DNA of 16,050 nucleotides from the NCBI GenBank assembly GCA_041571435.1, contig JBFFUI010000044.1, positions 1 to 16,050 of the forward strand, read 5' to 3'. Source of the DNA: Sulfurimonadaceae bacterium (lineage in GTDB: Bacteria; Campylobacterota; Campylobacteria; Campylobacterales; Sulfurimonadaceae). Position 1 is the stretch's first letter, and every line of letters begins with the position of its first letter. Shown one piece after another: positions 880 to 16,050 of this stretch. The notes beneath the pieces are model-generated. The model saw nothing but the letters and a program-made list of their open reading frames with translations, did no database searches and was not told where the DNA came from. Position numbers and translations under genes: made by a program.

Positions 880-1223
880 CATCGATCTCTAACTTCAATA
901 ATATGAGTAGGAGCATTTTCCCATTTTACTCTTTCAAAATGTCCTGAACATATGCCAGCTCTTGAAAGGTTATAAGAGTTTACCCCAGTGACTTTACCAT
1001 CATAAAGCCAAATGATATCAAATGTACTAACTCCAAAACTTGTTCCCGTTGTACAATATTGAATTGCTTCGTTTTTTCCTTTAAATTGTCTATTTTCGGG
1101 ATTGCCTAACTTTTTAATTACTGATGCTTTTGTATCACCTGGGTTGATTTCAAGTAATGCTTTGTTTTTTGTAACACAGCCTGAAAAAAATATAAGTAAT
1201 ATTGTTAAAATTATTTTTCTCAT
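879..1223 (-). CDS. Small outer-membrane lipoprotein, SmpA/BamE-like fold likely; probable gene cassette
   Basis: Likely start is ATG 1223 (MRKIILTILLIFFSGC, lipobox) rather than 1265, which lies inside the attC-like site. The 'GDTKASVIKKLGNP' motif is typical of SmpA/OmlA-like domains. Strongly AT-rich. Confidence 0.7.
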   Translation of the reverse strand: MRKIILTILLIFFSGCVTKNKALLEINPGDTKASVIKKLGNPENRQFKGKNEAIQYCTTGTSFGVSTFDIIWLYDGKVTGVNSYNLSRAGICSGHFERVKWENAPTHIIEVRDR

Positions 1224-1239
1224 TATTGTCCCTATCATG

Positions 1240-1312
1240 ATATAACCATTACAGATAGTAATCAAAAATCCATTTGCAGTTTTTTTAATCAGATTCTTTT
1301 TGTTTGTTAGTC
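1240..1312 (-). mobile_element. Degenerate attC-like site between the two lipoprotein genes
   Basis: 73 nt; minus strand GACTAAC...TGATTAAAAA...TTTTTGATTA...GTTATAT. It begins 5 nt after the stop of 1318..1617 and ends 16 nt before the next ATG. Confidence 0.55.
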
Positions 1313-1317
1313 TTACT

Positions 1318-1617
1318 TTACTCTTTTTTGTCTTTAGATGAATCAGCTAGACATTGAAAAGTTAATTCCGCATTTAATGGTGTCCAACCGCGAGATCCAT
1401 GTGTTTCCCAGCCCTTTTCAACCATGTACATTTTTCTTTCAAGACAATACCTATTTGCACGCTCAAGCGAAAGCCCTTTTACGTCAGCCCAACTTGGAAA
1501 CTGGCCACCCATTTCTGAGCTTACTCTGTATGTATCTTTTCCTACGGGGACTACATTGCTAACAGACGAGCAACCAGCGAAAAGGAAAAGAAAACAATAA
1601 AGTAAAGTTTTTTTCAT
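1318..1617 (-). CDS. Hypothetical lipoprotein; probable gene cassette
   Basis: 99 aa; MKK-hydrophobic-FAGC lipobox; GAGG RBS; AT-rich; preceded by a GTTAGAC core site at 1643-1649. Confidence 0.75.
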   Translation of the reverse strand: MKKTLLYCFLFLFAGCSSVSNVVPVGKDTYRVSSEMGGQFPSWADVKGLSLERANRYCLERKMYMVEKGWETHGSRGWTPLNAELTFQCLADSSKDKKE

Positions 1618-1896
1618 ACTTCTTACCTCAGAATTATTTTTAGTCTAACTATTAATCGGTACACATTCTATACAACTAAATCTTAAATGTGGACTTAGCG
1701 GAACTTATGAAATGTTGCAAAAAAATGTTATTTGATTGCAGATTGTCCTATTTAGCTTGAATAGACAATAAGATGAGTAAGTGAATTTCAATTTTTATTC
1801 ATTTAAACGGCAAAAAAGCCCCTAAAACCGCCAAGAAGAACACAACTTGCATACCCCAAACCAGACTTTCAGAGTCAAAACAGACAAGGAAAATTT

Positions 1897-2271
1897 ATGG
1901 GAATCCCTCAACCAGCTTTTTATATGATGAAATGCCAACAATCTACGCCTCCGGGTATGCCGAAACCGTCATGCGTTACACCTCAGACGCAGGACCTTTA
2001 CCAGCACCTGGGTCAGTCACTGATGCAAAAAGGGATCATCGGTACGGTCCAGCCTATCCAGACAGGGTGTCTTAACCGCTGTAATACCGGTCCTGTGATG
2101 TTGGTCGAGCCGGGTCACTTTTTGTATGTCGGTCTGACAAAAGAGAAGATCGAAAGAATCATCGACGAGCACATCATCGGCGGCAACGTCGTCAGCGAAT
2201 ACCTGATTCCCGACGAGCTGTGGGACGAAGCGCTCTCGCCGGCTGACCTTATGAAACAGATGGGACGCTAG
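1897..2271 (+). CDS. Thioredoxin-like (2Fe-2S) ferredoxin
   Basis: 124 aa; four Cys (C13, C26, CLNRC); GP..LVEP...Y..LT.E.I..II.EHI.GG.VV signature; AAGGA RBS. Confidence 0.9.
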   Translation: MGIPQPAFYMMKCQQSTPPGMPKPSCVTPQTQDLYQHLGQSLMQKGIIGTVQPIQTGCLNRCNTGPVMLVEPGHFLYVGLTKEKIERIIDEHIIGGNVVSEYLIPDELWDEALSPADLMKQMGR

Positions 2272-2282
2272 AGCGTTTTACG

Positions 2283-2405
2283 CTACTGAAATGTTCTGAC
2301 AAGCAGGGCAGCCGTCAAGATCCAAATAGCGATGACAACGGCGGCGGCCGTTTTGGAGTGGGGGAGTGACATTAACGTTGTCTCTTTGGCTTTTTCTTTG
2401 CACTC
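2283..2405 (-). pseudogene. 3' remnant (last 40 codons plus stop) of a diverged YkvA/DUF1232 gene
   Basis: Translates to ECKEKAKETTLMSLPHSKTAAAVVIAIWILTAALLVRTFQ*, with 25/40 aa identical to the C-terminus of 4138..4509. No 5' part is present. Confidence 0.85.
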
Positions 2406-2591
2406 ATCCTCTACTCTTGCGCAACACAAGAGTGATCGTTCGCCTCCTAAACCCCTCCATCTTTAAAGTGAGAATAGCGTGCAAGAGCGATGTTTAACCT
2501 TCGTTGTACGCCTCATTTGTTACCATGTTTCAACGTCATCCTGAGGATGATGAATCACACTCTTATCACTGCACGCACAATCAAAAGGTTA

Positions 2592-3452
2592 ATGACTATG
2601 CATATGAAACATATAGTACAGGTTTTACACACATCATTATTGATACTACTCTTCCTAAACCCGCTTATGGCCTCTGAAAAACCTGAAAAGGCAGAAGAGA
2701 GTCCTCTTTCCAAGCCACTGATAGAGCGCTATATTTTAGATGAACTTAAATCGCTCCGCGTAGAACAGGAGCAGTTTAAAGCTACGGTTCAGACCACTGT
2801 CGCCAAAGGGCAGATAGAGCAGACCGACAGGGCGGCACGCTATATTACGGACACCATAGGCAATGTCTTTTACCTTATTGCCGGAGCGACCTCGCTGCTT
2901 ATCTTTGCAGGCTGGAATTCTCTACGCGACATCAGGAAAAAGACCGAACAGATCATTGAAGAGCGGATTCACGAGATCACTGAAAGATATAATGAATCCT
3001 TTGCGGCCTTACAGGAAAAACTGACGGAACAATCCGAAAAGGTCCTGGTGAACCAGAAGAAGATCTATGATACACAACTCATCCACTCGCTGTGGATGCG
3101 TGCGAATCTGGAGACTAATTTGCAGTCAAAGATCGAGATCTATGATGAGATACTTGAGGTCAATGCCATGGATGCAGAGGTCTATGCCTATAAAGCGGAT
3201 GCGGTCTTGGACCTTGACGAGTTTGAATGGGCACTCAACCTAAGCAACAAAGCCCTGGAGATCGATCCGCAATATGGCTATGCATTTTGGCAGCGGGCCT
3301 GTGCCAATGCCCAACTCGGTAACAAGAGCGAAGCGATCATAGACCTGAAAACGGCACTGCGCATCTCTCCGAACCTAAAAGATGAGACAGTGCATGAACC
3401 TTCCTTTGCGCCATTAACCGAGCTGGACGAGTTTAAACGACTCATCACCTGA
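2592..3452 (+). CDS. Membrane-anchored TPR-repeat protein
   Basis: Start probably ATG 2592, 2598 or 2604 after AAAGG; signal-like N-terminus; TM helix (VFYLIAGATSLLIFAGW); coiled coil; C-terminal TPRs (AYKADAVL..., ALEIDPQYGYAFWQRACANAQLG...AIIDLKTALRISP). Confidence 0.85.
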   Translation: MTMHMKHIVQVLHTSLLILLFLNPLMASEKPEKAEESPLSKPLIERYILDELKSLRVEQEQFKATVQTTVAKGQIEQTDRAARYITDTIGNVFYLIAGATSLLIFAGWNSLRDIRKKTEQIIEERIHEITERYNESFAALQEKLTEQSEKVLVNQKKIYDTQLIHSLWMRANLETNLQSKIEIYDEILEVNAMDAEVYAYKADAVLDLDEFEWALNLSNKALEIDPQYGYAFWQRACANAQLGNKSEAIIDLKTALRISPNLKDETVHEPSFAPLTELDEFKRLIT

Positions 3453-3473
3453 GCAGACGCCAAAGGCGTCGCT
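3452..3473. terminator. Hairpin between convergent TPR and DUF2391 genes
   Basis: AGC(A)GACGCC-AAA-GGCGTCGCT stem-loop directly after the TPR stop; the U-tract is weak. Confidence 0.45.
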
Positions 3474-3494
3474 TATCAAATAGTCAACCACTGT

Positions 3495-3890
3495 TTATTC
3501 TTTATCAAAGCTATCGGCAATGATAGCGCCCATAGATGCCGGCATTGATATTAAAACGAGACGTTTTAACGCAATAGCCGGCTCCGTCAGAAAAGGGAAC
3601 TTATCGAGTGCGATCAAAACAAGCGAGACGACTAAAGCCGTTATGAGGTATGCAATAACGATCCGGATCAAAAAAACCGGGACTCTGTATTTGATATTTG
3701 CCTGGAATATGCTCTCGTAGGCGTAAAGACTCAAGAAGACAACAGACAAACCGAAAACCAGCAGAAGGTTTGATAATGGAAGTGTCTCACCTAGTCTCCA
3801 TGCCTCTTCAGAGAATGAGATCGGAACCGCTAAAGCAAATGCCCCAATAGCAACTTGGCTTGCATCCTCTAAGTTAAAGCTCAAATTCAT
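3495..3890 (-). CDS. DUF2391-family integral membrane protein
   Basis: Start ATG 3890 after GGAGAG; ED..Q...GAF.LAVP..FSEE.W.LG motif, 4 TM segments, PASMGA...D.FDKE C-terminus. Confidence 0.8.
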   Translation of the reverse strand: MNLSFNLEDASQVAIGAFALAVPISFSEEAWRLGETLPLSNLLLVFGLSVVFLSLYAYESIFQANIKYRVPVFLIRIVIAYLITALVVSLVLIALDKFPFLTEPAIALKRLVLISMPASMGAIIADSFDKE

Positions 3891-4097
3891 ATTTCTCTCC
3901 AATGCGTCGTTATCTGTTTACCGTGCAACTTTTTTGTTTATGTAGTTGGCATTTTTGCGATCTTGATGAGTTGACTATCTATCCAACGAATATAGTAGCA
4001 ACATAATCCTGTATGACAATATGAGATTAGACAAAATATGCTTATTTTCTCATTCAAACGGGAGTTGGGAATGACTCAAAATCGTCTAAAAGAACAC

Positions 4098-4126
4098 CAC
4101 ATCATCGGTGGCAACGTTGTTACTAG
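4098..4126 (+). pseudogene. Internally deleted 3' remnant of the ferredoxin gene
   Basis: 4098-4122 matches 2170-2194 at 22/25 nt (HIIGGNVV; the differences are at third codon positions). It is followed directly by CTAG, equivalent to the ferredoxin stop at 2268-2271. Confidence 0.75.
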
Positions 4127-4137
4127 AGCCTCTTTCG

Positions 4138-4509
4138 CTAGTCTATGAGTTGAAGAAGCAGCACGGCCATCAGGATCCAAATAGCGATGACGACGACGGC
4201 GGCCGCTTTGGAGCGGGGAAGCGTTTCCAAGGTTGAGGCTTTTGCTTTTTCTTGGCACTCTTTCCAAACGGCTTCGGGTATGAGCCAGATAGCAAGCGCG
4301 ATGCCCAGCGGCACCAGCAAAAAGTCATCCAGGTACCCGATGACCGGAATAAAGTCGGGGATGAGGTCGATGGGGCTCAGCGCATAAGCGACGACGATGA
4401 CGGAGACGACCTTGGCCATAAGAGGTACATCTTTGTGGTGATAGGCGAGGTAGAGTGCATAGACGTTGTGCTTAAGCGCAATTGCCCATTGCTTTAGTCT
4501 ATCCATCAT
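4138..4509 (-). CDS. YkvA / DUF1232 family membrane protein
   Basis: Signature YALSPIDLIPDFIPVIGYLDD; AGGAG RBS. Confidence 0.92.
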   Translation of the reverse strand: MMDRLKQWAIALKHNVYALYLAYHHKDVPLMAKVVSVIVVAYALSPIDLIPDFIPVIGYLDDFLLVPLGIALAIWLIPEAVWKECQEKAKASTLETLPRSKAAAVVVIAIWILMAVLLLQLID

Positions 4510-4663
4510 GACGTTCTCCTGCCTGACATAACCACGCCTTTAGCCTTTTTTAGAGTGATGCTTTACGGAAGACCCATGACTGAAACACTCTATTTGTCGT
4601 TCTTACTATTGTACAGCAGGTATGTAAAAGAGGCCTAATAAAAATGAACTGGTACGTCTGTAA

Positions 4664-4693
4664 TTGCAATCTCCTTTTGAAGCCTGTTATAAT
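4664..4693 (+). promoter_or_regulatory. Sigma70 promoter of suhB
   Basis: TTGCAA-18 nt-TATAAT with extended -10 (TGtTATAAT), 29 nt upstream of the GTG start. Confidence 0.65.
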
Positions 4694-4722
4694 CAGACAA
4701 TAGAACCAAAAGGACGCACACC

Positions 4723-5490
4723 GTGTATGACGTCATCAAAACCATCGCCTTATCCGCCGGACCGCTTTTTATGGAGGGGTACACCCATGCCAAGACCATC
4801 ACCTACAAAAGTGCGGTCGACCTGGTCACCGAGTACGACGTAAATGTCGAACTGCTGCTCAAGGAGAAGCTCGCTGCCGCTTTCCCGGAGCACACGCTGG
4901 TGGGCGAGGAGACCAACGAGGGCATTACGCACCCCGACAAGGCGATCTACATCGACCCCATCGACGGCACGACCAACTTTGTCCACGGCATCCCTTTCTG
5001 CTGCATCTCCATCGGTATCTGGGAAGGCGGTGAAGCGGTTGCGGGCGTGGTCTATAACCCGGTGCTTGACGAGCTCTTTTATGCCGAAAAGGGGAAGGGG
5101 GTGACCTGCAACGGCGAGAACTTGCAGGTAAGCGAGGCGACGACGCTGGAGCGTTCGCTCATCGCGACGGGCTTTCCCTACACCAAGATCGAGCAGGGGG
5201 AGGACTTCCACTGGGTCATCAAAAGCATGGAAGCGCTGCTGCCCTACACCCGCGACATGCGGCGTCTGGGCTCGGCGGCGCTGGACCTCTGCTATGTGGC
5301 GCGCGGGACCTTCGAGGGGTATTACGAGGTGAACCTCAAGCCGTGGGACGTTGCGGCGGGCATCTTGATGGTGACGGAAGCAGGGGGCGCAGTCAGCCGC
5401 CGTGAGGGCGGGGCCTACCGGTTTGACGATCGCATCGTGGTGGCGTCCAACGGGCGTATCCACGAGGCCATCGTCGAGAAGCTGCGCTAG
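4723..5490 (+). CDS. suhB: Inositol monophosphatase family protein
   Basis: DLVTEYD, GEE, IDPIDGTTNFVHG, RRLGSAALDLCYVARG, LKPWDVAAG motifs; GTG start after AAAGGA. Confidence 0.93.
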   Translation: MYDVIKTIALSAGPLFMEGYTHAKTITYKSAVDLVTEYDVNVELLLKEKLAAAFPEHTLVGEETNEGITHPDKAIYIDPIDGTTNFVHGIPFCCISIGIWEGGEAVAGVVYNPVLDELFYAEKGKGVTCNGENLQVSEATTLERSLIATGFPYTKIEQGEDFHWVIKSMEALLPYTRDMRRLGSAALDLCYVARGTFEGYYEVNLKPWDVAAGILMVTEAGGAVSRREGGAYRFDDRIVVASNGRIHEAIVEKLR

Positions 5491-5516
5491 ATCTTTGACT
5501 GAGGTTCAACACCGGT
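5438..5516 (+). repeat. Direct repeat copy 1: suhB 3' end and downstream bases
   Basis: 5438-5500 matches 7380-7442 at 60/63 nt. After a 6-nt indel, 5507-5516 matches 7443-7452 at 9/10. Confidence 0.95.
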
Positions 5517-5534
5517 AATCAGCAAGAGCTCTTT

Positions 5535-6524
5535 TCAGGGCTGGGTTGTTAATGAACGGCGCACATAAATAAGAGCTATGAGTAAAAGCAAGGTTACGAG
5601 CCATCCCAAAATGTAGACGACCTTCGCGTGTTTGGCTTTCGCTTTTTCCCGCCAGCCAAGTGGACGAATGCCCTTGACATCAAAAACGATCTTGCTGGCC
5701 AGGTTGACACATACAACGTTGACCATGAGCAGCAACCCGGCACCGGTAGCGAGACTGCTATTTCCAGATCCCAGCATCAGCCCCAGTGCTGCTGCCGGCG
5801 GAAGTAACGCTACGGCGACCATGACGCCTACCAGCACGCTTGACAGACCCGTTGTGAGGGACAATGCCGCTGCGGCGCCCGATGCCAGTGCCAGAGCGGC
5901 GGAATCGAGGCCGACGACGGTGCGCAACACAAGTTCATGATTTGTTGCGTCAAAAGACCAAAACATCCCCAGACCGGCAGGCACGGCCACGGCCAGCAGC
6001 ATTCCGGCAACGAGGGTTTGCACCGATTTTCGAATGAGGGACAGGTCACCCATGGCCGTGCCAAGACTTAGCGCAAGATTTGGCCCGAGCAACGGCGCGA
6101 TCACCATCGCGCCGATCACGACAGCGACGTTGTTTGTAATAAGACCTATCGCAGCCACCAAGGATGACAATATGACCAGAACGACAAAATTCAAATCAAG
6201 CCGTACCCCTTTTTCAACCCCTTCGTAGAGCGCTTCCCGCGCTTCGGTCGCAGCATCTTCCTGCTTGCGTTCCTCTTCGTCCGGTTTAGGCAACGACACA
6301 TCTACGGGGAGGACCACGATGTGGGCAGCCGGCTGTTTGTCCAAGAGATTCTGCAGGGCGTCCAGTACCAACTGGAGTTTGTCATCGCTTACCAGCATTC
6401 GCATCAGCTGCATGCCATCTTCTTCGACAACGCCAAGCCGAAAATCCTGCACTTCCTCCTTTTTAGCTATCGCCAAAACGGTGTCTGAACTGTCTGCATC
6501 GGCGATTATTTCGACATACTTCAT
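5535..6524 (-). CDS. TIGR00341 / DUF389 family membrane protein
   Basis: Start ATG 6524 after GAAGGA; motifs AVVIGAMVIAPLLGP and LVGVMVAVALLPPAA; about 7 TM segments. Confidence 0.88.
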   Translation of the reverse strand: MKYVEIIADADSSDTVLAIAKKEEVQDFRLGVVEEDGMQLMRMLVSDDKLQLVLDALQNLLDKQPAAHIVVLPVDVSLPKPDEEERKQEDAATEAREALYEGVEKGVRLDLNFVVLVILSSLVAAIGLITNNVAVVIGAMVIAPLLGPNLALSLGTAMGDLSLIRKSVQTLVAGMLLAVAVPAGLGMFWSFDATNHELVLRTVVGLDSAALALASGAAAALSLTTGLSSVLVGVMVAVALLPPAAALGLMLGSGNSSLATGAGLLLMVNVVCVNLASKIVFDVKGIRPLGWREKAKAKHAKVVYILGWLVTLLLLIALIYVRRSLTTQP

Positions 6525-6552
6525 GATTGTGATTTCCTTCACCTCATAGCAC

Positions 6553-6588
6553 CGGCTAACGAGAGATGGGGTGTCGTTAGCCGTTTTT
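6553..6588 (+). terminator. Intergenic stem-loop with plus-strand T-tract
   Basis: CGGCTAACGA-11 nt-TCGTTAGCCG (perfect 10-bp stem) followed by TTTTT on the + strand. Confidence 0.55.
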
Positions 6589-6601
6589 AGCTGTTCTTGC
6601 G

Positions 6602-6853
6602 CTAGACCTTCTTAACGGTACTGATGATAGATAACAAAATTACGGCGCCGATAGTGGCCATAATGATAGCGCCTACAAAGCCGCCTGTCGTGATGCCGAA
6701 CAGACCGAATACAAAACCACCCAATACAGCGCCAACGATGCCCACAATGATATTGCCTATGAGGCCAAATCCTCTGCCTTTCATTATGATGCCGGAAAGC
6801 CATCCGGCCAGTGCGCCGATTGCCAAAAATATGATCAAGCTGGTAATATCCAT
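6602..6853 (-). CDS. GlsB/YeaQ/YmgE (transglycosylase-associated) stress-response membrane protein
   Basis: Start ATG 6853 after GAGGAG; IGALAGWL...G.GLIGNIIVGIVGA.LGG...A.IGAVILL signature. Confidence 0.92.
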   Translation of the reverse strand: MDITSLIIFLAIGALAGWLSGIIMKGRGFGLIGNIIVGIVGAVLGGFVFGLFGITTGGFVGAIIMATIGAVILLSIISTVKKV

Positions 6854-6866
6854 GATGACTCCTCGC

Positions 6867-7082
6867 CTATTTTTTAACGAAAATGAAGATGCCGACAACA
6901 AAACTGGCAGCAGCCGCGATGTACAGGGTCATGACCTTGTCTGTATCAGAACCTGTAACAGCCTGGCTTATCTGCGAACCGACAGAACCGGACAACTGAT
7001 ACCCCCATAATCCAAGGCCAACGCCTATAACCACCAGGGCAATACCTATGATTTTCATTGTCGCTCCCGAACCTATTGCCAT
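6867..7082 (-). CDS. DUF3185-like small membrane protein
   Basis: 71 aa; AGGAG RBS; KIIGIAL...G..L...GY...S.GSQIS..VTGS.TDK pattern; 2 TM segments. Confidence 0.8.
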   Translation of the reverse strand: MAIGSGATMKIIGIALVVIGVGLGLWGYQLSGSVGSQISQAVTGSDTDKVMTLYIAAAASFVVGIFIFVKK

Positions 7083-7251
7083 GTTGAACTCCTATAGTTG
7101 AAAGGGATGAGATACTTTTAGCATTACTGCCAACTGTTTAATATACCGGTATAAGTCTGAAATCAACCTAATACCACATATAAAAAATATTTATCTCTTT
7201 GCAGTCAAAAGCTATAGTCCTACGTCTTACTCTGACTGATTTTTTGGAGGA

Positions 7252-7372
7252 TTGCAGATCATCCCCTCGATGATAGCGCAACTGGCTCGTCTCCTACCGC
7301 GAGGTCGACGCCATCAAACGCTCCCTCTCGCGCATCTCGTTGCGACTCAGCTGCCCCAACGCGCTGGGCGAT
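7252..7372 (+). pseudogene. Internal fragment of an ACP phosphodiesterase (AcpH/DUF479)-like gene
   Basis: LQIIPSMIA-(frameshift)-NWLVSYREVDAIKRSLSRISLRLSCPNALGD recalls the AcpH C-terminal 'M...NWL.SY......I...L.R.S.RL...N.L' segment. It is GC-rich inside an AT-rich spacer and has no start. Confidence 0.6.
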
Positions 7373-7452
7373 CGGGTACTGGTGGCGTCCAACGGGCGTA
7401 TTTACGAGGCCATCGTCGAGAAGCTGCGCTAGATCTTCGACTCAACAGCGGT
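7370..7452 (+). repeat. Direct repeat copy 2: suhB 3' remnant
   Basis: Encodes DRVLVASNGRIYEAIVEKLR* versus suhB DRIVVASNGRIHEAIVEKLR*; offset 1942 nt. Confidence 0.95.
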
Positions 7453-7466
7453 TTACTCGGCTTGTC

Positions 7467-10163
7467 TCAAAACGCTTTTTTCAGTATTCGGATACGCAGC
7501 TGTTTTTCGACCTCAATGATAAAAAACATCGTGACGCCGATACCAAGCATCAACATAGTGTCAAACAGTCCGACCCCTTCAGTCTCAAAAACGCTTTGGA
7601 GCCATGGCACATAGGTAATGGCAATCTGTCCGATGATAACGACGATGATAGATATCCAGACAGCACGGGTGGCACGTACGGCTTTGCCGCTCAAGGCACT
7701 CCCGTACATATTGCGGATGAAGAGGAGATGGAATATTTCCAGCACGACCAGCGTGTTCACGGCTAGCGTTCGGGCAAGGCTTTCGGAATAGCCGCTTGAG
7801 ACAGCATATTCGTAAATGCCGAATATGCCGGCCAGAAACAGACTGGCGACCAACACAATATGCCACATAAGGCCGGCACTCAGCAGTGACTCACTGCGGG
7901 GTCGGGGCGGGCGCTGCATGGTGTTCTCTTCCGTTGGCTCGAAGGCCAGAGCGATGCCGAGTGTCACGGCGGTGATCATGTTCACCCACAAGATCTGGAT
8001 CGGGGTGATGGGCAGGTTCAGTCCGAGCATCAGTGCGAGGATGACCGTCATGGCCTCGCCGGCATTGGTCGGCAGTGTCCAGCTGATGACTTTTTTAATG
8101 TTGTCGTATACGGTTCGGCCTTCGCGCACTGCCGCGACAATCGATGCGAAATTGTCATCGGCCAACACGACCTCCGATGCCTCTTTTGCAGCCTCGCTGC
8201 CGGTTTTTCCCATGGCAATGCCGACCCCCGCGCGCTTAAGCGCGGGGGCATCATTGACGCCGTCACCCGTCATTGCCACCGTCATACCATTGGCCTGCAG
8301 TGCCATCACCAGGCGTAATTTGTGCTCCGGACTTGTGCGTGCAAAGATCCCCGTCTGTCTGACGACGGATTCGAGTGCGGCGTCGTCGAGCTCATTGAGC
8401 TCTGCACCGGTCAACAGGGCGTCGTTATTCCGCAGCCCCAGCTGTTTGGCGATAGCGACGGCCGTGACGGCATGGTCACCGGTGATCATTTTGACGTCAA
8501 TACCGGCACGGTGACACTCGGCGATGGCCTCAATGGCTTCAGGCCGCGGCGGATCGATCAGACCGGCCAGCCCCAGAAATATCAGCGAGTCGTCAATATC
8601 GGCATGTTCAAGCACGGTATGTTCGGGGCGAACCGGTTTGGTCGCGAAGGCCAGGAGCCGTTGGCCTTGTGCGGCTATTGTATTGACCTGCTCTTGCCAG
8701 TATGCGACATCCAGCGGTTCCGTCCCATTGCTGCCGCTGCGTTGTTCGATACACATGGCGAGCACTGTTTCCGGCGCCCCCTTGACAAAGATGAAGGCAT
8801 TGTTCTCATGGTCATGGTTAAGGGTCGCCATGTATTTGTGTTGCGTATCGAAAGGGATCACATCGGTACGTGTCCATTGGTCTCTTGCCCCGTGACAATC
8901 GATACCGGACTTTCCGGCAAACGCCAGCAGGGCGGCCTCCATGGGGTCGCCCTGAGCGGACCACGTATTCTCCTTTCGTACAAGTTCGGAATCATTGCAG
9001 AGTGCCGCCGTTCGTCCCAGCTCCTGTAATGCAGTATGATCCGAAATAGAGACTCTCTGCTCATTCACTCTTATGTCGCCCGAAGGTTCATAACCGGTTC
9101 CCCCGATATCGAAGCGCACAGATGCTGTGGCTACCGAGGCGACTTTCATCTCATTGCGGGTCAGGGTGCCCGTTTTGTCAGAGCAGATGACGGAGACTGA
9201 ACCGAGTGTTTCGATCGCCGGCAAACGGCGAACGATGGCGTTTCGCCGTGCCATGGCCTGCACACCTACCGCCATTGTTATCGTCAATACGGCAGGCAGT
9301 CCCTCGGGAATGGCGGCAACGGAGAGCCCCACCACAGCCATGAATATCGTGCTGAAATCGTAATGCATAACGAAGTAGCCTAACATCAAGATAAGCGAGG
9401 CAACGGCAAGAATGAAGAGCGTAAGCCACTTGGCCAAGACTGCCATCTGTGCAACCAGGGGTGTGTTAAGTGTCTGTACTTCAGAGAGTAGACCGCTTAT
9501 GCGGCCGATCTCTGTGTCAGCCCCCGTGGCAACCACCACGCCCAAGCCTTGTCCGCTCGCAACCGTCGTCCCGCTGAATCCCATGCAGAAACGGTCACCG
9601 AGCGGTGCTTCTGCAGCGACCTCTTTGGAACGCTTTTCGACAGCCACGGACTCGCCGGTAAGAATCGCTTCCTGGATCTGCAGACCGTGGGTTTCCAGTA
9701 AGCGCAGATCGGCCGGTACCTTGTCACCGGCTTCGAGCAGGACGATATCGCCGGGAACCAACAGTTCGCCCGCTACGGTTTGACGCTTGCCGTCACGTAT
9801 GACAGAGGCACGCAGTGCCAGCATCTGCCGTATGGCATCCATCGCTTTTTCGGCTTTTCCCTCCTGAATAAAACCGATGACGGCATTGATGATGACCACG
9901 GCAACAATGACAGCCGTATCAATAACATGTCCCAGCAGCAGCGTAATGGCGGCGGCTCCAAGGAGGACATAGATAAGGATGTTGTGAAAGTGGGAAATAA
10001 AACGCAGGATTACATTTCTGCGCGGCGGTTCCGGAAGCCTGTTCGGTCCGACATCGGACAGCCTTTGCTCCGCATCGGCTGCACTCAGTCCTGCCGTCGT
10101 TGACTTCAGGGCGGACAATGTCTGCTGCGATGTTTGGTTATGCCAGTCATGAACCCTTTTCAT
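7467..10163 (-). CDS. Cation-transporting P-type ATPase, P2A-like (Ca2+/Na+/other cation)
   Basis: 898 aa; TGES, AAIPEGLP, DKTGTLT, KGAPE, DPPR, MITGD, TGDGVNDAPAL, QILWVN motifs. Confidence 0.95.
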   Translation of the reverse strand: MKRVHDWHNQTSQQTLSALKSTTAGLSAADAEQRLSDVGPNRLPEPPRRNVILRFISHFHNILIYVLLGAAAITLLLGHVIDTAVIVAVVIINAVIGFIQEGKAEKAMDAIRQMLALRASVIRDGKRQTVAGELLVPGDIVLLEAGDKVPADLRLLETHGLQIQEAILTGESVAVEKRSKEVAAEAPLGDRFCMGFSGTTVASGQGLGVVVATGADTEIGRISGLLSEVQTLNTPLVAQMAVLAKWLTLFILAVASLILMLGYFVMHYDFSTIFMAVVGLSVAAIPEGLPAVLTITMAVGVQAMARRNAIVRRLPAIETLGSVSVICSDKTGTLTRNEMKVASVATASVRFDIGGTGYEPSGDIRVNEQRVSISDHTALQELGRTAALCNDSELVRKENTWSAQGDPMEAALLAFAGKSGIDCHGARDQWTRTDVIPFDTQHKYMATLNHDHENNAFIFVKGAPETVLAMCIEQRSGSNGTEPLDVAYWQEQVNTIAAQGQRLLAFATKPVRPEHTVLEHADIDDSLIFLGLAGLIDPPRPEAIEAIAECHRAGIDVKMITGDHAVTAVAIAKQLGLRNNDALLTGAELNELDDAALESVVRQTGIFARTSPEHKLRLVMALQANGMTVAMTGDGVNDAPALKRAGVGIAMGKTGSEAAKEASEVVLADDNFASIVAAVREGRTVYDNIKKVISWTLPTNAGEAMTVILALMLGLNLPITPIQILWVNMITAVTLGIALAFEPTEENTMQRPPRPRSESLLSAGLMWHIVLVASLFLAGIFGIYEYAVSSGYSESLARTLAVNTLVVLEIFHLLFIRNMYGSALSGKAVRATRAVWISIIVVIIGQIAITYVPWLQSVFETEGVGLFDTMLMLGIGVTMFFIIEVEKQLRIRILKKAF

Positions 10164-10348
10164 TACTTTCCTTGTTCGACATGATAGAGGATGCGTTTCG
10201 GACTCTGCTGTGACGCCATCCTTGTTTTATGTACCGGGCTTTAATCAGCGTTGGGAAACCCGTCACAATGTCAGGGATCTATTGCTTCGTATCATCCGAT
10301 CTACAGTTCAACATACGCCTCAAAGCAGTCTGATACGAGATGCCTGTA

Positions 10349-12694
<2,346 letters not shown>

Positions 12695-12702
12695 TCAGCG
12701 TT

Positions 12703-14832
12703 TTAGAGCAGTTTCAGGCGTTTGAGTCTCAGGGCATTGGCGATGACGGAGACGGAGCTGAAGCTCATCGCGGCAGCGGCGATCATCGGTGAGAGGAGTA
12801 TGCCGAAGAAGGGGTAGAGCAGACCCGCAGCGACAGGGACACCCGCGGAGTTGTAGATGAAGGCGAAAAAGAGGTTCTGTTTGATGTTGCGCATGGTGGC
12901 CCGGCTTAAGCGTCTCGCCCTGACGATACCCCGAAGGTCCCCTTTGACCAGGGTGACACCGGCACTCTCCATCGCAACGTCGGTGCCCGTACCCATGGCG
13001 ATGCCGATGTGGGCCTGCGCCAGAGCAGGGGCATCGTTGATCCCGTCACCAGCCATGGCGACGATATGCCCTTTGGCTTGCAGTTTTTTGATGATCTCGG
13101 CTTTTTGGTCCGGCATCACTTCGGCATAGACGTTGTCGATGGCCAGCGTCCCGGCGATCGCCTGGGCGGTCAGATGGTTGTCCCCTGTCAGCATGACGAT
13201 CTCGATCCCCTGGGCCTGAAGGTCGCGAACGGCCTGTGCGCTGGTCTCTTTGAGCGGATCGGCAACAGCGATCAGACCGGCCGCTTTGGCGTCGATGGCG
13301 ATCAGCATGACGGTGTTGCCCTGAGAGCGCAGGGCCTCTGCCTGCTTCAGCAGCGTATCGGCCTGGATGTTGAGGCTTTTTTCGAGCAGCTTGCGTGTCC
13401 CCACTGCCACCGTATGCCTCTCGACATCACCGGTAATGCCCATACCTGTAACGGACTGGAAGTTAACAGTTTCGGCCAGGGCAATGCCTCTCGCCTGGGC
13501 ACCTTGCACAATCGCCGCCGCCAAAGGGTGCTCGCTTGCACGTTCCAGACTGGCGGCGAGACGCAGCACCTCCTCTTCGCTGAATCCCTCTTCTGCCTGC
13601 ACGGTGATCAGTTTCGGTCTGCCTTCGGTCAGGGTCCCTGTCTTGTCGACGACAAGGGTGTCGACCTTCTCCATTATCTCAAGCGCTTCGGCATTTTTTA
13701 TCAGGACGCCGGCCGTGGCGCCGCGTCCTGTCGCGACCATGATCGAGATCGGCGTCGCAAGTCCAAGCGCGCAGGGACAGGCGATCATAAGGACGGCAAC
13801 CGCATTGACAAGGGCATGGGCCAGCTGCGGTTCGGGGCCTACCGTCCACCAGATGCCAAAGGTTATCAGTGCGATAGCGATGACGGCCGGCACAAAATAG
13901 CCCGAGACGACATCGGCCAGTTTCTGGATCGGTGCGCGGGAACGCTGCGCTTCGGAGACCATTGCGATGATCTGCGAGAGCAGGGTGTCGGCACCGACTT
14001 TTTCCGCCTTCATCAGCAGTGTGCCGGTACCGTTGATCGTCGCGCCGATGATGTGGTCTCCTGCAGACTTCGCTACCGCAAGAGGCTCTCCGGTGATCAT
14101 CGACTCGTCCACGTTGCTTTCGCCTTTGACGACACTGCCGTCTACGGGTATTTTCTCTCCGGGCCGGATACGAAGCAGGTCGCCGGGCTGCACTTCTTCC
14201 AGGGCAATGTCATGTTCCAAGCCTTCCTCTTTTACAAGGTGGGCCGTGTTCGGGGCCAGTTTGAGCAGCAGGGTGATGGCGGCACCGGTCTGGGCACGGG
14301 CCCGCAGTTCAAGGACCTGTCCCAGAAGTACCAGTACCGTGATGACGGCTGCCGCTTCGAAGTAGACCGCGACCAGGCCATCCTCTGTCTGCATGACCGA
14401 GGGGAAGAGCTGCGGCAGCATGAGTGCGACGACGCTGTAACTCCAAGCGACCGAGATACCCAGTGTGATCAGCGTGAACATGTTGAGGTTCATGGTCTTC
14501 AGTGAGTTCCAGCCACGGACGAAAAATGGCCAGCCGCCCCACAGGACGACAGGGGTAGCAAGAAGAAACTCTGTCCACTGCACACTCTTCATGGAGAGTG
14601 TAGCGGGGAGCCATGGTGCCAACATCTCGGTTGCCATGGCCAGGATGAAGACAGGGAGTGTCAGTACGGCACTGATCCAGAAACGGCGGCGCATGTCGGT
14701 AAGCTCTTCGTTTTCAGTATCGGTTTTTACCTGCACCGGTTCAAGGGCCATGCCGCATTTCGGACAGGCACCGGGATGGTCCTGCCTGATCTCGGGGTGC
14801 ATCGGACAGGTGTAGAGTGTTTCGTTTTTCAT
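12703..14832 (-). CDS. copA: Copper-translocating P1B-type ATPase
   Basis: N-terminal YTCPMHPEI...CPKCGM metal-binding domain; [27 protein letters not shown] and M..SS Cu(I)-site motifs. Confidence 0.95.
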
Positions 14833-15197
14833 GGTGATACCACCTTTGTCGTGACTTCGAGGATATGACCGTCGGGATCTCCGAAACAGAAGCCTTTGGC
14901 ATCGGAACGACTGTATTCGGACATATTGTTGCGGATCTCTGGCGAGTCGCCGTAGGAAATGCCTCTGACGGTGATATGGCTCAAAATACTGTCGTATTCG
15001 CTGGCTGAAGCGTGAAAGAGGTAGTGCGCCGCTTTGCGCTCCTGCCGCTTCTCAAAGTAGAGTTTGGTCGTCTCATCGACGTATAGGACTTCACGGCTCC
15101 CTTCTGTCTCGCCTTCTCTGAAACCGAAGGCCTCGGCATAGAACTGTGCTGACGCCTTGTTGTCTGAGCAGGGGACGATCTGACGGTCGAGTTTCAT
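14829..15197 (-). CDS. VOC / glyoxalase-bleomycin resistance family protein
   Basis: MKLD...V.C.D...SA.FY...FG, H..F, G..F.DPDGH.LEV pattern; AAGGAG RBS; ATGA overlap with copA. Confidence 0.88.
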
Positions 15198-15323
15198 GGT
15201 CTACTCCTTTAAAAGGAAGTGCCTACTCTAAAAAATAGCACCACTCTTCTTAGAAGGTTGTCTGGTCTTGGAACTATGTAAAAAAGTTAAGTGAGTCTAT
15301 TATGCAGATATACCCGACGCACG

Positions 15324-15339
15324 GCGTGCGGCAGCGGGT
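15324..15339 (-). other. Right half of a GC-rich hairpin (15313-15339) downstream of the helicase-like gene
   Basis: Plus strand ACCCG-A-CGCACG-G-CGTGCG-GCAG-CGGGT forms nested inverted repeats just past the stop at 15354. There is no clear U-tract. Confidence 0.3.
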
Positions 15340-15353
15340 CGCTCAAAGGAGGG

Positions 15354-16050
15354 TTATTTAGGGGTGTCGCCTTTTTTGACGGTCGGCATCTTAATGACGC
15401 GAGGGGCCCGTTTGGGTGCCTCTTGGGCACTCTCTTTTTTCGGTTTGTTGCGCCAGTCGCCGCCGCTTCTGTCCGCGTCGGAATGCTTCTTGTCCCATGG
15501 CTTTTTCTCACCTTTGTTGTCCCAAGACTTCTTTTCACCGCGGTTTTTGTCCCATGGTTTCTTCTCACCCTGATCGTCTTTGTTCCAAGGCTTGCTGCCG
15601 TCTTGCTTTTTGGCTCTGTATTTAGGGTTCTGGCGTTTCTCATCTTCGGTTCGCGGCGTGCCGTCATGGCGGTGGTTGCGTTCGCCTGTCTTGCCGGAGA
15701 AGATCGGTTTGCCGTTTTCGTCTTTACCGAGGTATTTGGACTCTTTTTTCTTTTTGGCATCAGCTTTGGCGCGTTTTTCGTTGCGCTCTTCCTGGTTCTT
15801 CTTGTTGTACTCCTGGCGCTCTTTCAGCTCTTTTGACGCTTCACGGTCTTTGACATACGAGGCCGGCTCAAATCCGGCGATGACCTCTTTGGTGAGGGTC
15901 CGTTTCATCACGGTCTCTATCTTGTAGAGCTCCTGCTGCTCTTTGTCGTCGGCAAGAAGCAGGGCGTAGGTCTTGGTCTGGTTGAGGCGTTTGAGGTACT
16001 TCTCCGGACTCTCTGCAAGGTCAAGGCTTATGATCATGTCGCATTTTACC
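15354..16050 (-). CDS. C-terminal part of a DEAD/DEAH-box helicase-like protein with a long basic tail (5' end beyond the window)
   Basis: The frame is open to 16050 (VKCDMIISLDLAESPEKYLKRL). The segment corresponds to D.VINYDLP..PE.Y.HRIG, followed by 'L..IE..MKR.L..E.I.GFEP' as in RhlE-type helicases, then a K/R/D/E-rich tail. Confidence 0.65.
   Translation of the reverse strand, partial: VKCDMIISLDLAESPEKYLKRLNQTKTYALLLADDKEQQELYKIETVMKRTLTKEVIAGFEPASYVKDREASKELKERQEYNKKNQEERNEKRAKADAKKKKESKYLGKDENGKPIFSGKTGERNHRHDGTPRTEDEKRQNPKYRAKKQDGSKPWNKDDQGEKKPWDKNRGEKKSWDNKGEKKPWDKKHSDADRSGGDWRNKPKKESAQEAPKRAPRVIKMPTVKKGDTPK
15490..15599 (-). repeat. Four coding tandem repeats G(E/S)K(K)(P/S)W(D/N)K
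   Basis: Units start (+ strand) at 15490, 15517, 15547 and 15580, with consensus TTGTCCCATGGYTTYTTCTCACC; periods are 27, 30 and 33 nt. Confidence 0.85.

Follow-up and report, generated by a model that had tools for sequence, protein, structure and literature searches.

A diverged direct repeat of a ferredoxin–ykvA junction in a Sulfurimonadaceae genome, in which the intact ykvA is probably the imported copy

In a Sulfurimonadaceae bacterium (GenBank assembly GCA_041571435.1, contig JBFFUI010000044.1), a stretch of 16,050 nucleotides, hereafter the window, carries the convergent junction of a ferredoxin gene (fdx) and a ykvA gene twice, and the two copies bracket a TPR gene and a short DUF2391-like gene. 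The left copy comprises an intact fdx and the 3' end of a ykvA gene; the right copy comprises a 3' relic of a second ferredoxin gene (fdx') and an intact ykvA (ykvA'). Such a locus raises the question of which copy is resident, which one was imported, and what kind of event left a single intact version of each gene, one from either copy. The original prediction held that the ykvA remnant had diverged in another lineage and had come in with the TPR/DUF2391 genes as cargo, through a Campbell-type or homology-facilitated crossover inside the repeat. The comparisons described here point to the opposite polarity: the left copy (fdx and the remnant) is, on its sequence affinities, very probably native, and the right copy (fdx' and ykvA') a divergent import.

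The gene order proposed earlier, that is, fdx, ykvA 3' remnant, TPR/DUF2391, fdx 3' remnant and ykvA, is borne out, and the repeat coordinates and identity counts all reproduce. Positions 2268–2405 align without gaps to 4123–4260 with 102 of 138 nucleotides identical; no other direct diagonal of this length in the whole window scores higher, and five mononucleotide shuffles reached 63–66. In the core (2301–2405 against 4156–4260), 83 of 105 are identical (79%). A further fdx piece of 25 nucleotides at 2170–2194 matches 4098–4122 at 22 positions, a value equalled by none of 200 shuffles of the 100 nucleotides upstream of 4123 (maximum 18), and the 73 nucleotides that follow it in the left copy (2195–2267) are absent from the right one. 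As had also been claimed, the letters place the stop codons in register (TAG at 2269–2271 and 4124–4126, CTA at 2283–2285 and 4138–4140), with spacers of 11 nucleotides in the same register between them (2272–2282 and 4127–4137). Identity between the copies is unbroken for at most 18 nucleotides. With an empty-site relative, L001, as guide, the homology of the left copy reaches 2409, four bases beyond the end given earlier (2405). The remnant comprises 41 codons with neither an indel nor an internal stop, so its description as in frame stands; that many of its changes are synonymous or conservative holds less well than stated, since 22 of 40 codons differ from ykvA', 7 synonymously and 15 nonsynonymously, with an omega of 0.43 between the two copies (Nei-Gojobori). 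The mechanically called open reading frame (ORF) that covers the remnant extends from 2283 to 2429, with a TTG start and 48 amino acids. As a separate observation, the spacer and its stop codons form an apparent small palindrome, which reads AGCGT..ACGCT in the left copy and, in L001, AGAACGTTCT.

The relative L001 emerged from a survey of ferredoxin loci. Homologs of the ferredoxin number 1274 in the protein collection, the named ones belonging to Campylobacterota, and an alignment of 41 fdx homologs used in a search of genome contigs yielded 80 loci from Sulfurimonadaceae and relatives. When ten window proteins were compared with these loci by tblastn, a YkvA or SuhB homolog was found near fdx in one of the 80, namely L001, and homologs of the TPR or DUF2391-like protein in none within the fetched flanks. 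L001 is a 2751-nucleotide contig of a Sulfurimonadaceae metagenome-assembled genome (MAG) that represents the empty site, in which ykvA directly follows fdx across the same spacer (994–1004), whose length is thus kept in three copies; a genome with the two genes adjacent, which the original prediction had listed as a check, therefore exists. Its gene order is a DUF6232 gene, fdx (619–993), ykvA (1005–1376, minus strand), an outer membrane protein (OMP) beta-barrel gene (1438–2001, minus strand) and suhB (from 2164). By blastn, window 1635–2409 corresponds to L001 352–1131 at 87.7%, unbroken through fdx, the spacer and the remnant and ending at 2409, and window 4601–5310 corresponds to L001 2042–2751 at 87.5%, whereas window 4152–4550 matches L001 1019–1418 at 78% only. 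The OMP gene between ykvA and suhB (Pfam OMP_b-brl, 2.6e-9) is absent from the window; either L001 may have gained it or the window may have lost it with the insertion.

The assignment of the two copies follows from a three-way comparison over 142 nucleotides, in which the left copy agrees with L001 at 122 positions (86%), and the right copy agrees with L001, as with the left copy, at 104. Of 45 informative sites, 27 unite the left copy with L001, nine unite left and right, and nine unite the right copy with L001 (binomial p=2e-4); the 27 are scattered along the entire 142 nucleotides, and an affinity switch was not seen. In the 25-nucleotide fdx piece the left copy is identical to L001 (25/25), and all three differences of the right copy fall on third codon positions. 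The same picture is given by the flanks and the remnant, with identities to L001 of 348/372 nucleotides for fdx (94% of amino acids; sisters in the fdx tree), 532/588 for suhB (93% of amino acids) and 105/123 for the remnant. The synonymous distance (dS, Nei-Gojobori) between window and L001 is 0.22 for fdx, 0.39 for suhB and 0.31 for the remnant, which lies within the range of the flanks, as against 0.90 for the full ykvA' and 1.00 for its 82 codons beyond the repeat (Fisher p=5.7e-5 against pooled fdx and suhB).

Phylogeny agrees with this assignment. The ykvA' protein is 75% identical to the YkvA of L001, 92% to P0121 and 87% to P0122 of Sulfurimonas sp. HSL3-7, a strain later named Sulfonitrofixus jiaomeiensis, for which the part of PMC12403661 that describes it gives a GC content of 48.7%. 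In a YkvA tree of 20 sequences, ykvA' forms a clade with P0121 and HSL3-7 (support 99/97) and the remnant groups with L001, P0125, P0123 and P0124 (support 80/82); a quick tree of 43 sequences has the same outcome. The approximately unbiased (AU) test rejects both a clade of remnant and intact copy (p=0.0009) and a grouping of ykvA' with the L001 type (p=0.0008); the former grouping is the one that the original prediction had itself named as contrary to it, and the latter was chosen after the quick tree. The earlier claim that the copies are not each other's closest relatives thus holds, as does the view that one of them stems from a lineage with the same fdx–ykvA junction, but the foreign copy is the right one and not the remnant. 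Intactness of a copy is thus no guide to the direction of transfer, for which an outgroup locus was needed. Four adjacent sites at 2319–2336, at which left and right agree and differ from L001, were considered as a gene-conversion patch and discarded (permutation p 0.17–0.25).

The ferredoxin gene has a wider distribution of its own. Four MAGs carry two ferredoxin loci each (L002, L003, L004 and L012, with partners L008, L026, L007 and L042), and the fdx tree places the window fdx in a starred clade (96) with L001, L002, L003, L004 and L012. In L002 and L004 this fdx copy follows a flavocytochrome c sulfide dehydrogenase gene instead of preceding ykvA, and the window-type fdx looks like an extra paralog of variable location.

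The segment that separates the two L001-like flanks is a block of about 2.2 kb, from 2410 to about 4575, that contains the TPR gene, the short DUF2391-like gene, 29 nucleotides of fdx' relic and the complete ykvA'. It replaces L001 1132–2041, in which lie the OMP gene and, of ykvA, the promoter and the 5' two-thirds. Its GC content is 0.459, compared with 0.562 for 5000–16050, and the GC content at third codon positions (GC3) is 0.54 in the TPR gene, 0.46 in the DUF2391-like gene and 0.66 in ykvA', compared with 0.60–0.83 in neighbouring genes. At the left end, no homology of 2410–2591 was detected in L001 or elsewhere among the 80 fdx loci, and a 7-bp hairpin at the joint (2413–2433) is no better than in shuffles (z -1.2). 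At the right end, 4510–4550 aligns to L001 1377–1418 inside the 78% match, 4551–4600 is without counterpart, and 4601–4722 is identical to L001 at 89 of 122 positions.

With respect to gene content, the TPR ORF opens at 2490 (320 amino acids), and in-frame ATGs at 2592, 2598 and 2604 are preceded by an AAAAGG stretch; one of the three is the likely start rather than 2490. Its 798 homologs are mostly of 280–284 amino acids and span 77–90% of the 320-residue ORF, the best being 91–97% identical. With full-length relatives of 130–135 amino acids, the DUF2391-like gene represents a naturally short form rather than a truncated one. The fdx' relic is out of frame downstream of its deletion, and an extension of it into the fdx 5' leader (4078–4097 against 1824–1843) was rejected, as its local score of 20 is equalled by 127 of 300 shuffles. 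A 25-codon ORF at 4072–4149 on the plus strand (MTQNRLKEHHIIGGNVVTRASFASL) starts after a GGGAG stretch, crosses the relic and ends in the 3' end of ykvA'; it is the only frame that still reads the relic and is probably meaningless. A terminator role of the fdx and fdx' pieces on the minus strand finds no support (z-scores -1.2, +0.4 and +0.1), and the number of terminator-like sites, three, is close to the 2.8 expected. The features of the locus are collected in the table.

Table. Features of the duplicated fdx–ykvA locus in window coordinates
Feature	Position	Strand	Basis
fdx, thioredoxin-like [2Fe-2S] ferredoxin gene, intact, probably resident, 124 amino acids	1897..2271	+	NCBIfam fdxn_Azotob 3.5e-23; weak Pfam PF01257
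11-nucleotide spacer of the left, probably resident copy	2272..2282	.	between convergent stops; same length and register in L001
ykvA 3' remnant, probably resident, stop and 41 codons	2283..2409	-	cut at 2409/2410; colinear with L001 to 1131
left end of the putative inserted block, non-coding, upstream of the TPR gene	2410..2591	.	blastn and alignment break at 2409/2410
TPR gene, N-terminal signal/transmembrane region, C-terminal TPRs	2592..3452	+	Pfam TPR_2, TPR_9; NCBIfam TPR_END_plus 3.4e-14
short DUF2391-like membrane protein gene, 135 amino acids	3495..3902	-	Pfam DUF2391 1.3e-9, profile positions 6–120 of 275
AT-rich intergenic region, DUF2391-like gene to fdx' relic	3903..4097	.	GC 0.38–0.40
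fdx' relic of a second, divergent ferredoxin gene	4098..4126	+	25 nucleotides encoding HIIGGNVV, 73-nucleotide deletion, stop region
11-nucleotide spacer of the right, divergent copy	4127..4137	.	length and register as 2272–2282
ykvA', intact, divergent, DUF1232, 123 amino acids	4138..4509	-	Pfam DUF1232 2.1e-13; sole complete ykvA at the locus
ykvA'–suhB intergenic region with the right boundary of the block	4510..4722	.	L001 alignment
suhB-like inositol monophosphatase gene, probable resident right flank	4723..5490	+	Pfam Inositol_P 1.3e-68

Searches for mobility and defence functions returned little. A recombinase family matches none of 15 window ORFs in NCBIfam, 14 of which were also compared with Pfam (ORFs overlapping larger genes were left out), in keeping with the earlier statement that no recombinase is encoded. 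Neither a tRNA nor a tmRNA gene nor any Rfam family was found in the window. Against plasmid and phage collections, 2410–4600 gives weak single-gene matches of 65–75%, none covering 80% of the query, and the pairing of TPR with DUF2391 occurs in neither of the two plasmid loci inspected. PADLOC defence families match none of seven proteins at E<=0.01, and a description of the block as an anti-phage defence island is thus not supported.

Outside the locus, the segment immediately to its left, 640–1634, is a second variable segment of low GC content (0.348 against 0.56 for 5000–16050) that adjoins it. Its minus-strand ORFs at 879–1265 (GC3 0.18) and 1318–1617 (GC3 0.30) are without Pfam, NCBIfam or PADLOC match, homology to L001 begins at 1635, and L001 has its DUF6232 gene upstream of fdx instead. 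To the right, 7467–15197 on the minus strand holds a run of metal and oxidative-stress genes, including a Ca/PMR1-type P-type ATPase of 898 amino acids, KatG (767 amino acids), a CopA-type copper ATPase (709 amino acids) and a glyoxalase-like ORF.

For the event itself, we favour, at roughly even confidence, a reading of the repeat as the scar of an old additive recombination rather than as a mobile element, laid down in one step by a process resembling homology-facilitated illegitimate recombination (HFIR). The recipient backbone would have been L001-like, with fdx, ykvA, the OMP gene and suhB. A linear fragment could have entered it without a site-specific recombinase, found a homologous anchor on the ykvA/suhB side and joined illegitimately at 2409/2410. 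The resident ykvA would have lost its first 82 codons and its promoter, the last 41 codons staying beside the resident fdx; the incoming ykvA' would be a xenolog, now the only intact ykvA, and the redundant fdx' would have shrunk by deletions, either before or after entry. The junction would be present twice because the donor belonged to a related lineage with the same convergent fdx–ykvA junction, and with such a source the remnant would therefore be native and the intact copy the xenolog. In agreement with this proposal, the block adds putatively foreign DNA and removes resident DNA (L001 1132–2041) relative to the unmodified relative. Additionally, ykvA' groups with HSL3-7 and P0121, and fdx and suhB are closest to L001, as is characteristic of xenologous displacement. 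The right boundary of the block lies somewhere between 4551 and about 4830, a stretch that has homology for a possible anchor but shows no sharp switch.

The single-event mechanism is much less certain than the polarity, and several points weigh against one or the other. The native assignment depends on comparison with a single empty-site relative of 2.75 kb, and the joint at 2409/2410 is likewise mapped against L001 alone; in HFIR the illegitimate joint usually sits at a few bases of microhomology. The right boundary is not sharp, and the excess divergence over the first 60–120 nucleotides of suhB is marginal (p 0.04–0.06, with cuts picked post hoc). A single HFIR event needs a donor in which TPR/DUF2391 lay beside a truncated or later-deleted fdx', and natural transformation is not known to be documented for the family. 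The relatives of the TPR protein seem to include a genome with an L001-type YkvA (P0243, 91%; P0125), such that the clade itself may have held the TPR gene as a resident, with the block a possible mosaic or product of two events. The description of TPR/DUF2391 as foreign cargo is unproven.

Among the other explanations, the structure fits a Campbell-type single crossover of a circle to the right of ykvA, between ykvA and suhB, about as well as HFIR, provided that a later deletion removed the 5' portion of the resident gene together with the DNA preceding the TPR gene. Such a crossover yields two full junction copies in the same final order, the right copy turns L001-like within 4551–4830 as a possible crossover site, and the fdx' relic shows that deletions occurred at the locus; however, it costs one event more than one-sided illegitimate joining, neither a replicon nor a recombinase nor any gene related to circular forms was found, and relatives of the block were absent from the plasmid and phage collections. 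We regard it as rather unlikely. Two successive events fit as well, in which TPR/DUF2391 entered and destroyed the resident ykvA and a fragment with the 3' end of fdx' and ykvA' later restored it. The unequal GC3 of the block's parts speaks for this order of events, as do the apparent link between the closest TPR relatives (91–97%) and a genome with L001-type YkvA and the absence of HSL3-7 from the best 120 of the 798 TPR matches, but the account is less parsimonious, no intermediate genome is at hand and that link is tentative; we consider it improbable, if not to be dismissed. A crossover inside the repeat with a foreign remnant, as originally predicted, matches the gene order expected of a single junction crossover and the intact frame of the remnant. 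It further requires that the affinity change partway through the repeat and that the 5' portion of the intact ykvA be native, and neither is seen: the left copy is the one closest to L001 (122/142; 27 sites against 9 + 9, without a switch) and ykvA' beyond the repeat has a dS of 1.0, which leaves this version barely credible.

Two further explanations concern the origin of the second copy. Tandem duplication of fdx–ykvA in situ, with reciprocal decay and later insertion of TPR/DUF2391, would give a direct repeat with one intact copy per gene and needs no recombinase; yet the copies share only 104 of 142 positions with each other, fewer than the 122 that the left copy shares with the gene of another organism (L001), the AU test rejects them as closest relatives, the duplication must predate the split of the L001 and HSL3-7 types and then have been lost in L001, and a second fdx fragment occurs in none of the 80 loci (one match in 70, none in 10), all of which makes it very unlikely. 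An assembly chimera of two co-occurring strains is suggested by the facts that the relatives are almost all metagenome bins, that the joints are known from assembled sequence alone, and that the TPR and ykvA' proteins have no exact match in the protein collection (best 97% and 92%). A k-mer strain switch, however, produces one hybrid junction and not two copies 1.9 kb apart, no sequence is shared at 2409/2410, both flanks are L001-like, and an assembler would not generate an fdx' relic that carries two deletions; a chimera thus appears highly improbable too.

On the favoured reading, the locus is a well-preserved scar of ordinary recombination in which ykvA was displaced in situ, and no new mechanism or function is implied. 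It offers a natural case of recombinase-free gene gain in which both joints are readable and resident and foreign relics stand side by side, in a group, the sulfur-oxidising Campylobacterota, in which there has been little work on gene-transfer mechanisms. A bolder and quite doubtful extension is that the fdx–ykvA junction serves as a portable homology anchor for repeated capture without a recombinase, i.e., as a small hot spot. The three intervals around the junction (ahead of fdx, between the two copies, and from ykvA to suhB) all differ between window and L001, which fits this proposal, and, if true, the hot spot would move gene sets like TPR/DUF2391 between Sulfurimonadaceae lineages and turn over ykvA alleles.

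Several known systems resemble parts of this locus. Some integrative islands insert at a gene's 3' end and bring a substitute for that end with them, which results in imperfect direct repeats at attL and attR. As in such islands, a direct repeat of gene 3' ends brackets inserted genes here; unlike them, the locus has no detected integrase or recombinase, hybrid copies, tRNA or tmRNA target, or conserved att core (no identical run exceeds 18 nucleotides), and its divergence spans the whole gene and its promoter.

HFIR denotes the integration of a linear fragment by homologous joining at one end and illegitimate joining at the other, as set out in PMC3240628 and PMC5361080, and those sources refer to its description in Acinetobacter, Streptococcus pneumoniae and Pseudomonas stutzeri (cited in PMC5361080; PMC3240628). 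On the favoured reading, the present locus would share with it the addition of DNA beside a homologous anchor, the loss of resident DNA at the illegitimate end, and the lack of a recombinase and of a target-site duplication; it differs in that the process is inferred from one comparison and not observed. In Vibrio cholerae, displacement of type VI secretion system (T6SS) effectors leaves orphan immunity genes, and Rhs and contact-dependent inhibition (CDI) loci accumulate arrays of orphaned 3' ends, for which HFIR is proposed in the corresponding sections of PMC5361080. As far as those sections describe the T6SS, Rhs and CDI loci, an incoming homologous module displaces a resident gene and a resident relic stays beside it, as here; the present case differs in that neither toxins nor immunity functions nor arrays are involved, and it would represent one event that struck a housekeeping-like membrane protein gene and left a relic of its 3' end. 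The term xenologous gene displacement in situ, which appears in, for example, PMC1274311 and PMC9425974, also applies, since a resident gene has probably been replaced in place by the homolog of another lineage between vertically inherited flanks. A clean displacement leaves no relic, whereas both relics survive here, and it is because the resident ykvA 3' end and the foreign fdx' 3' end have both survived that the joints can be mapped.

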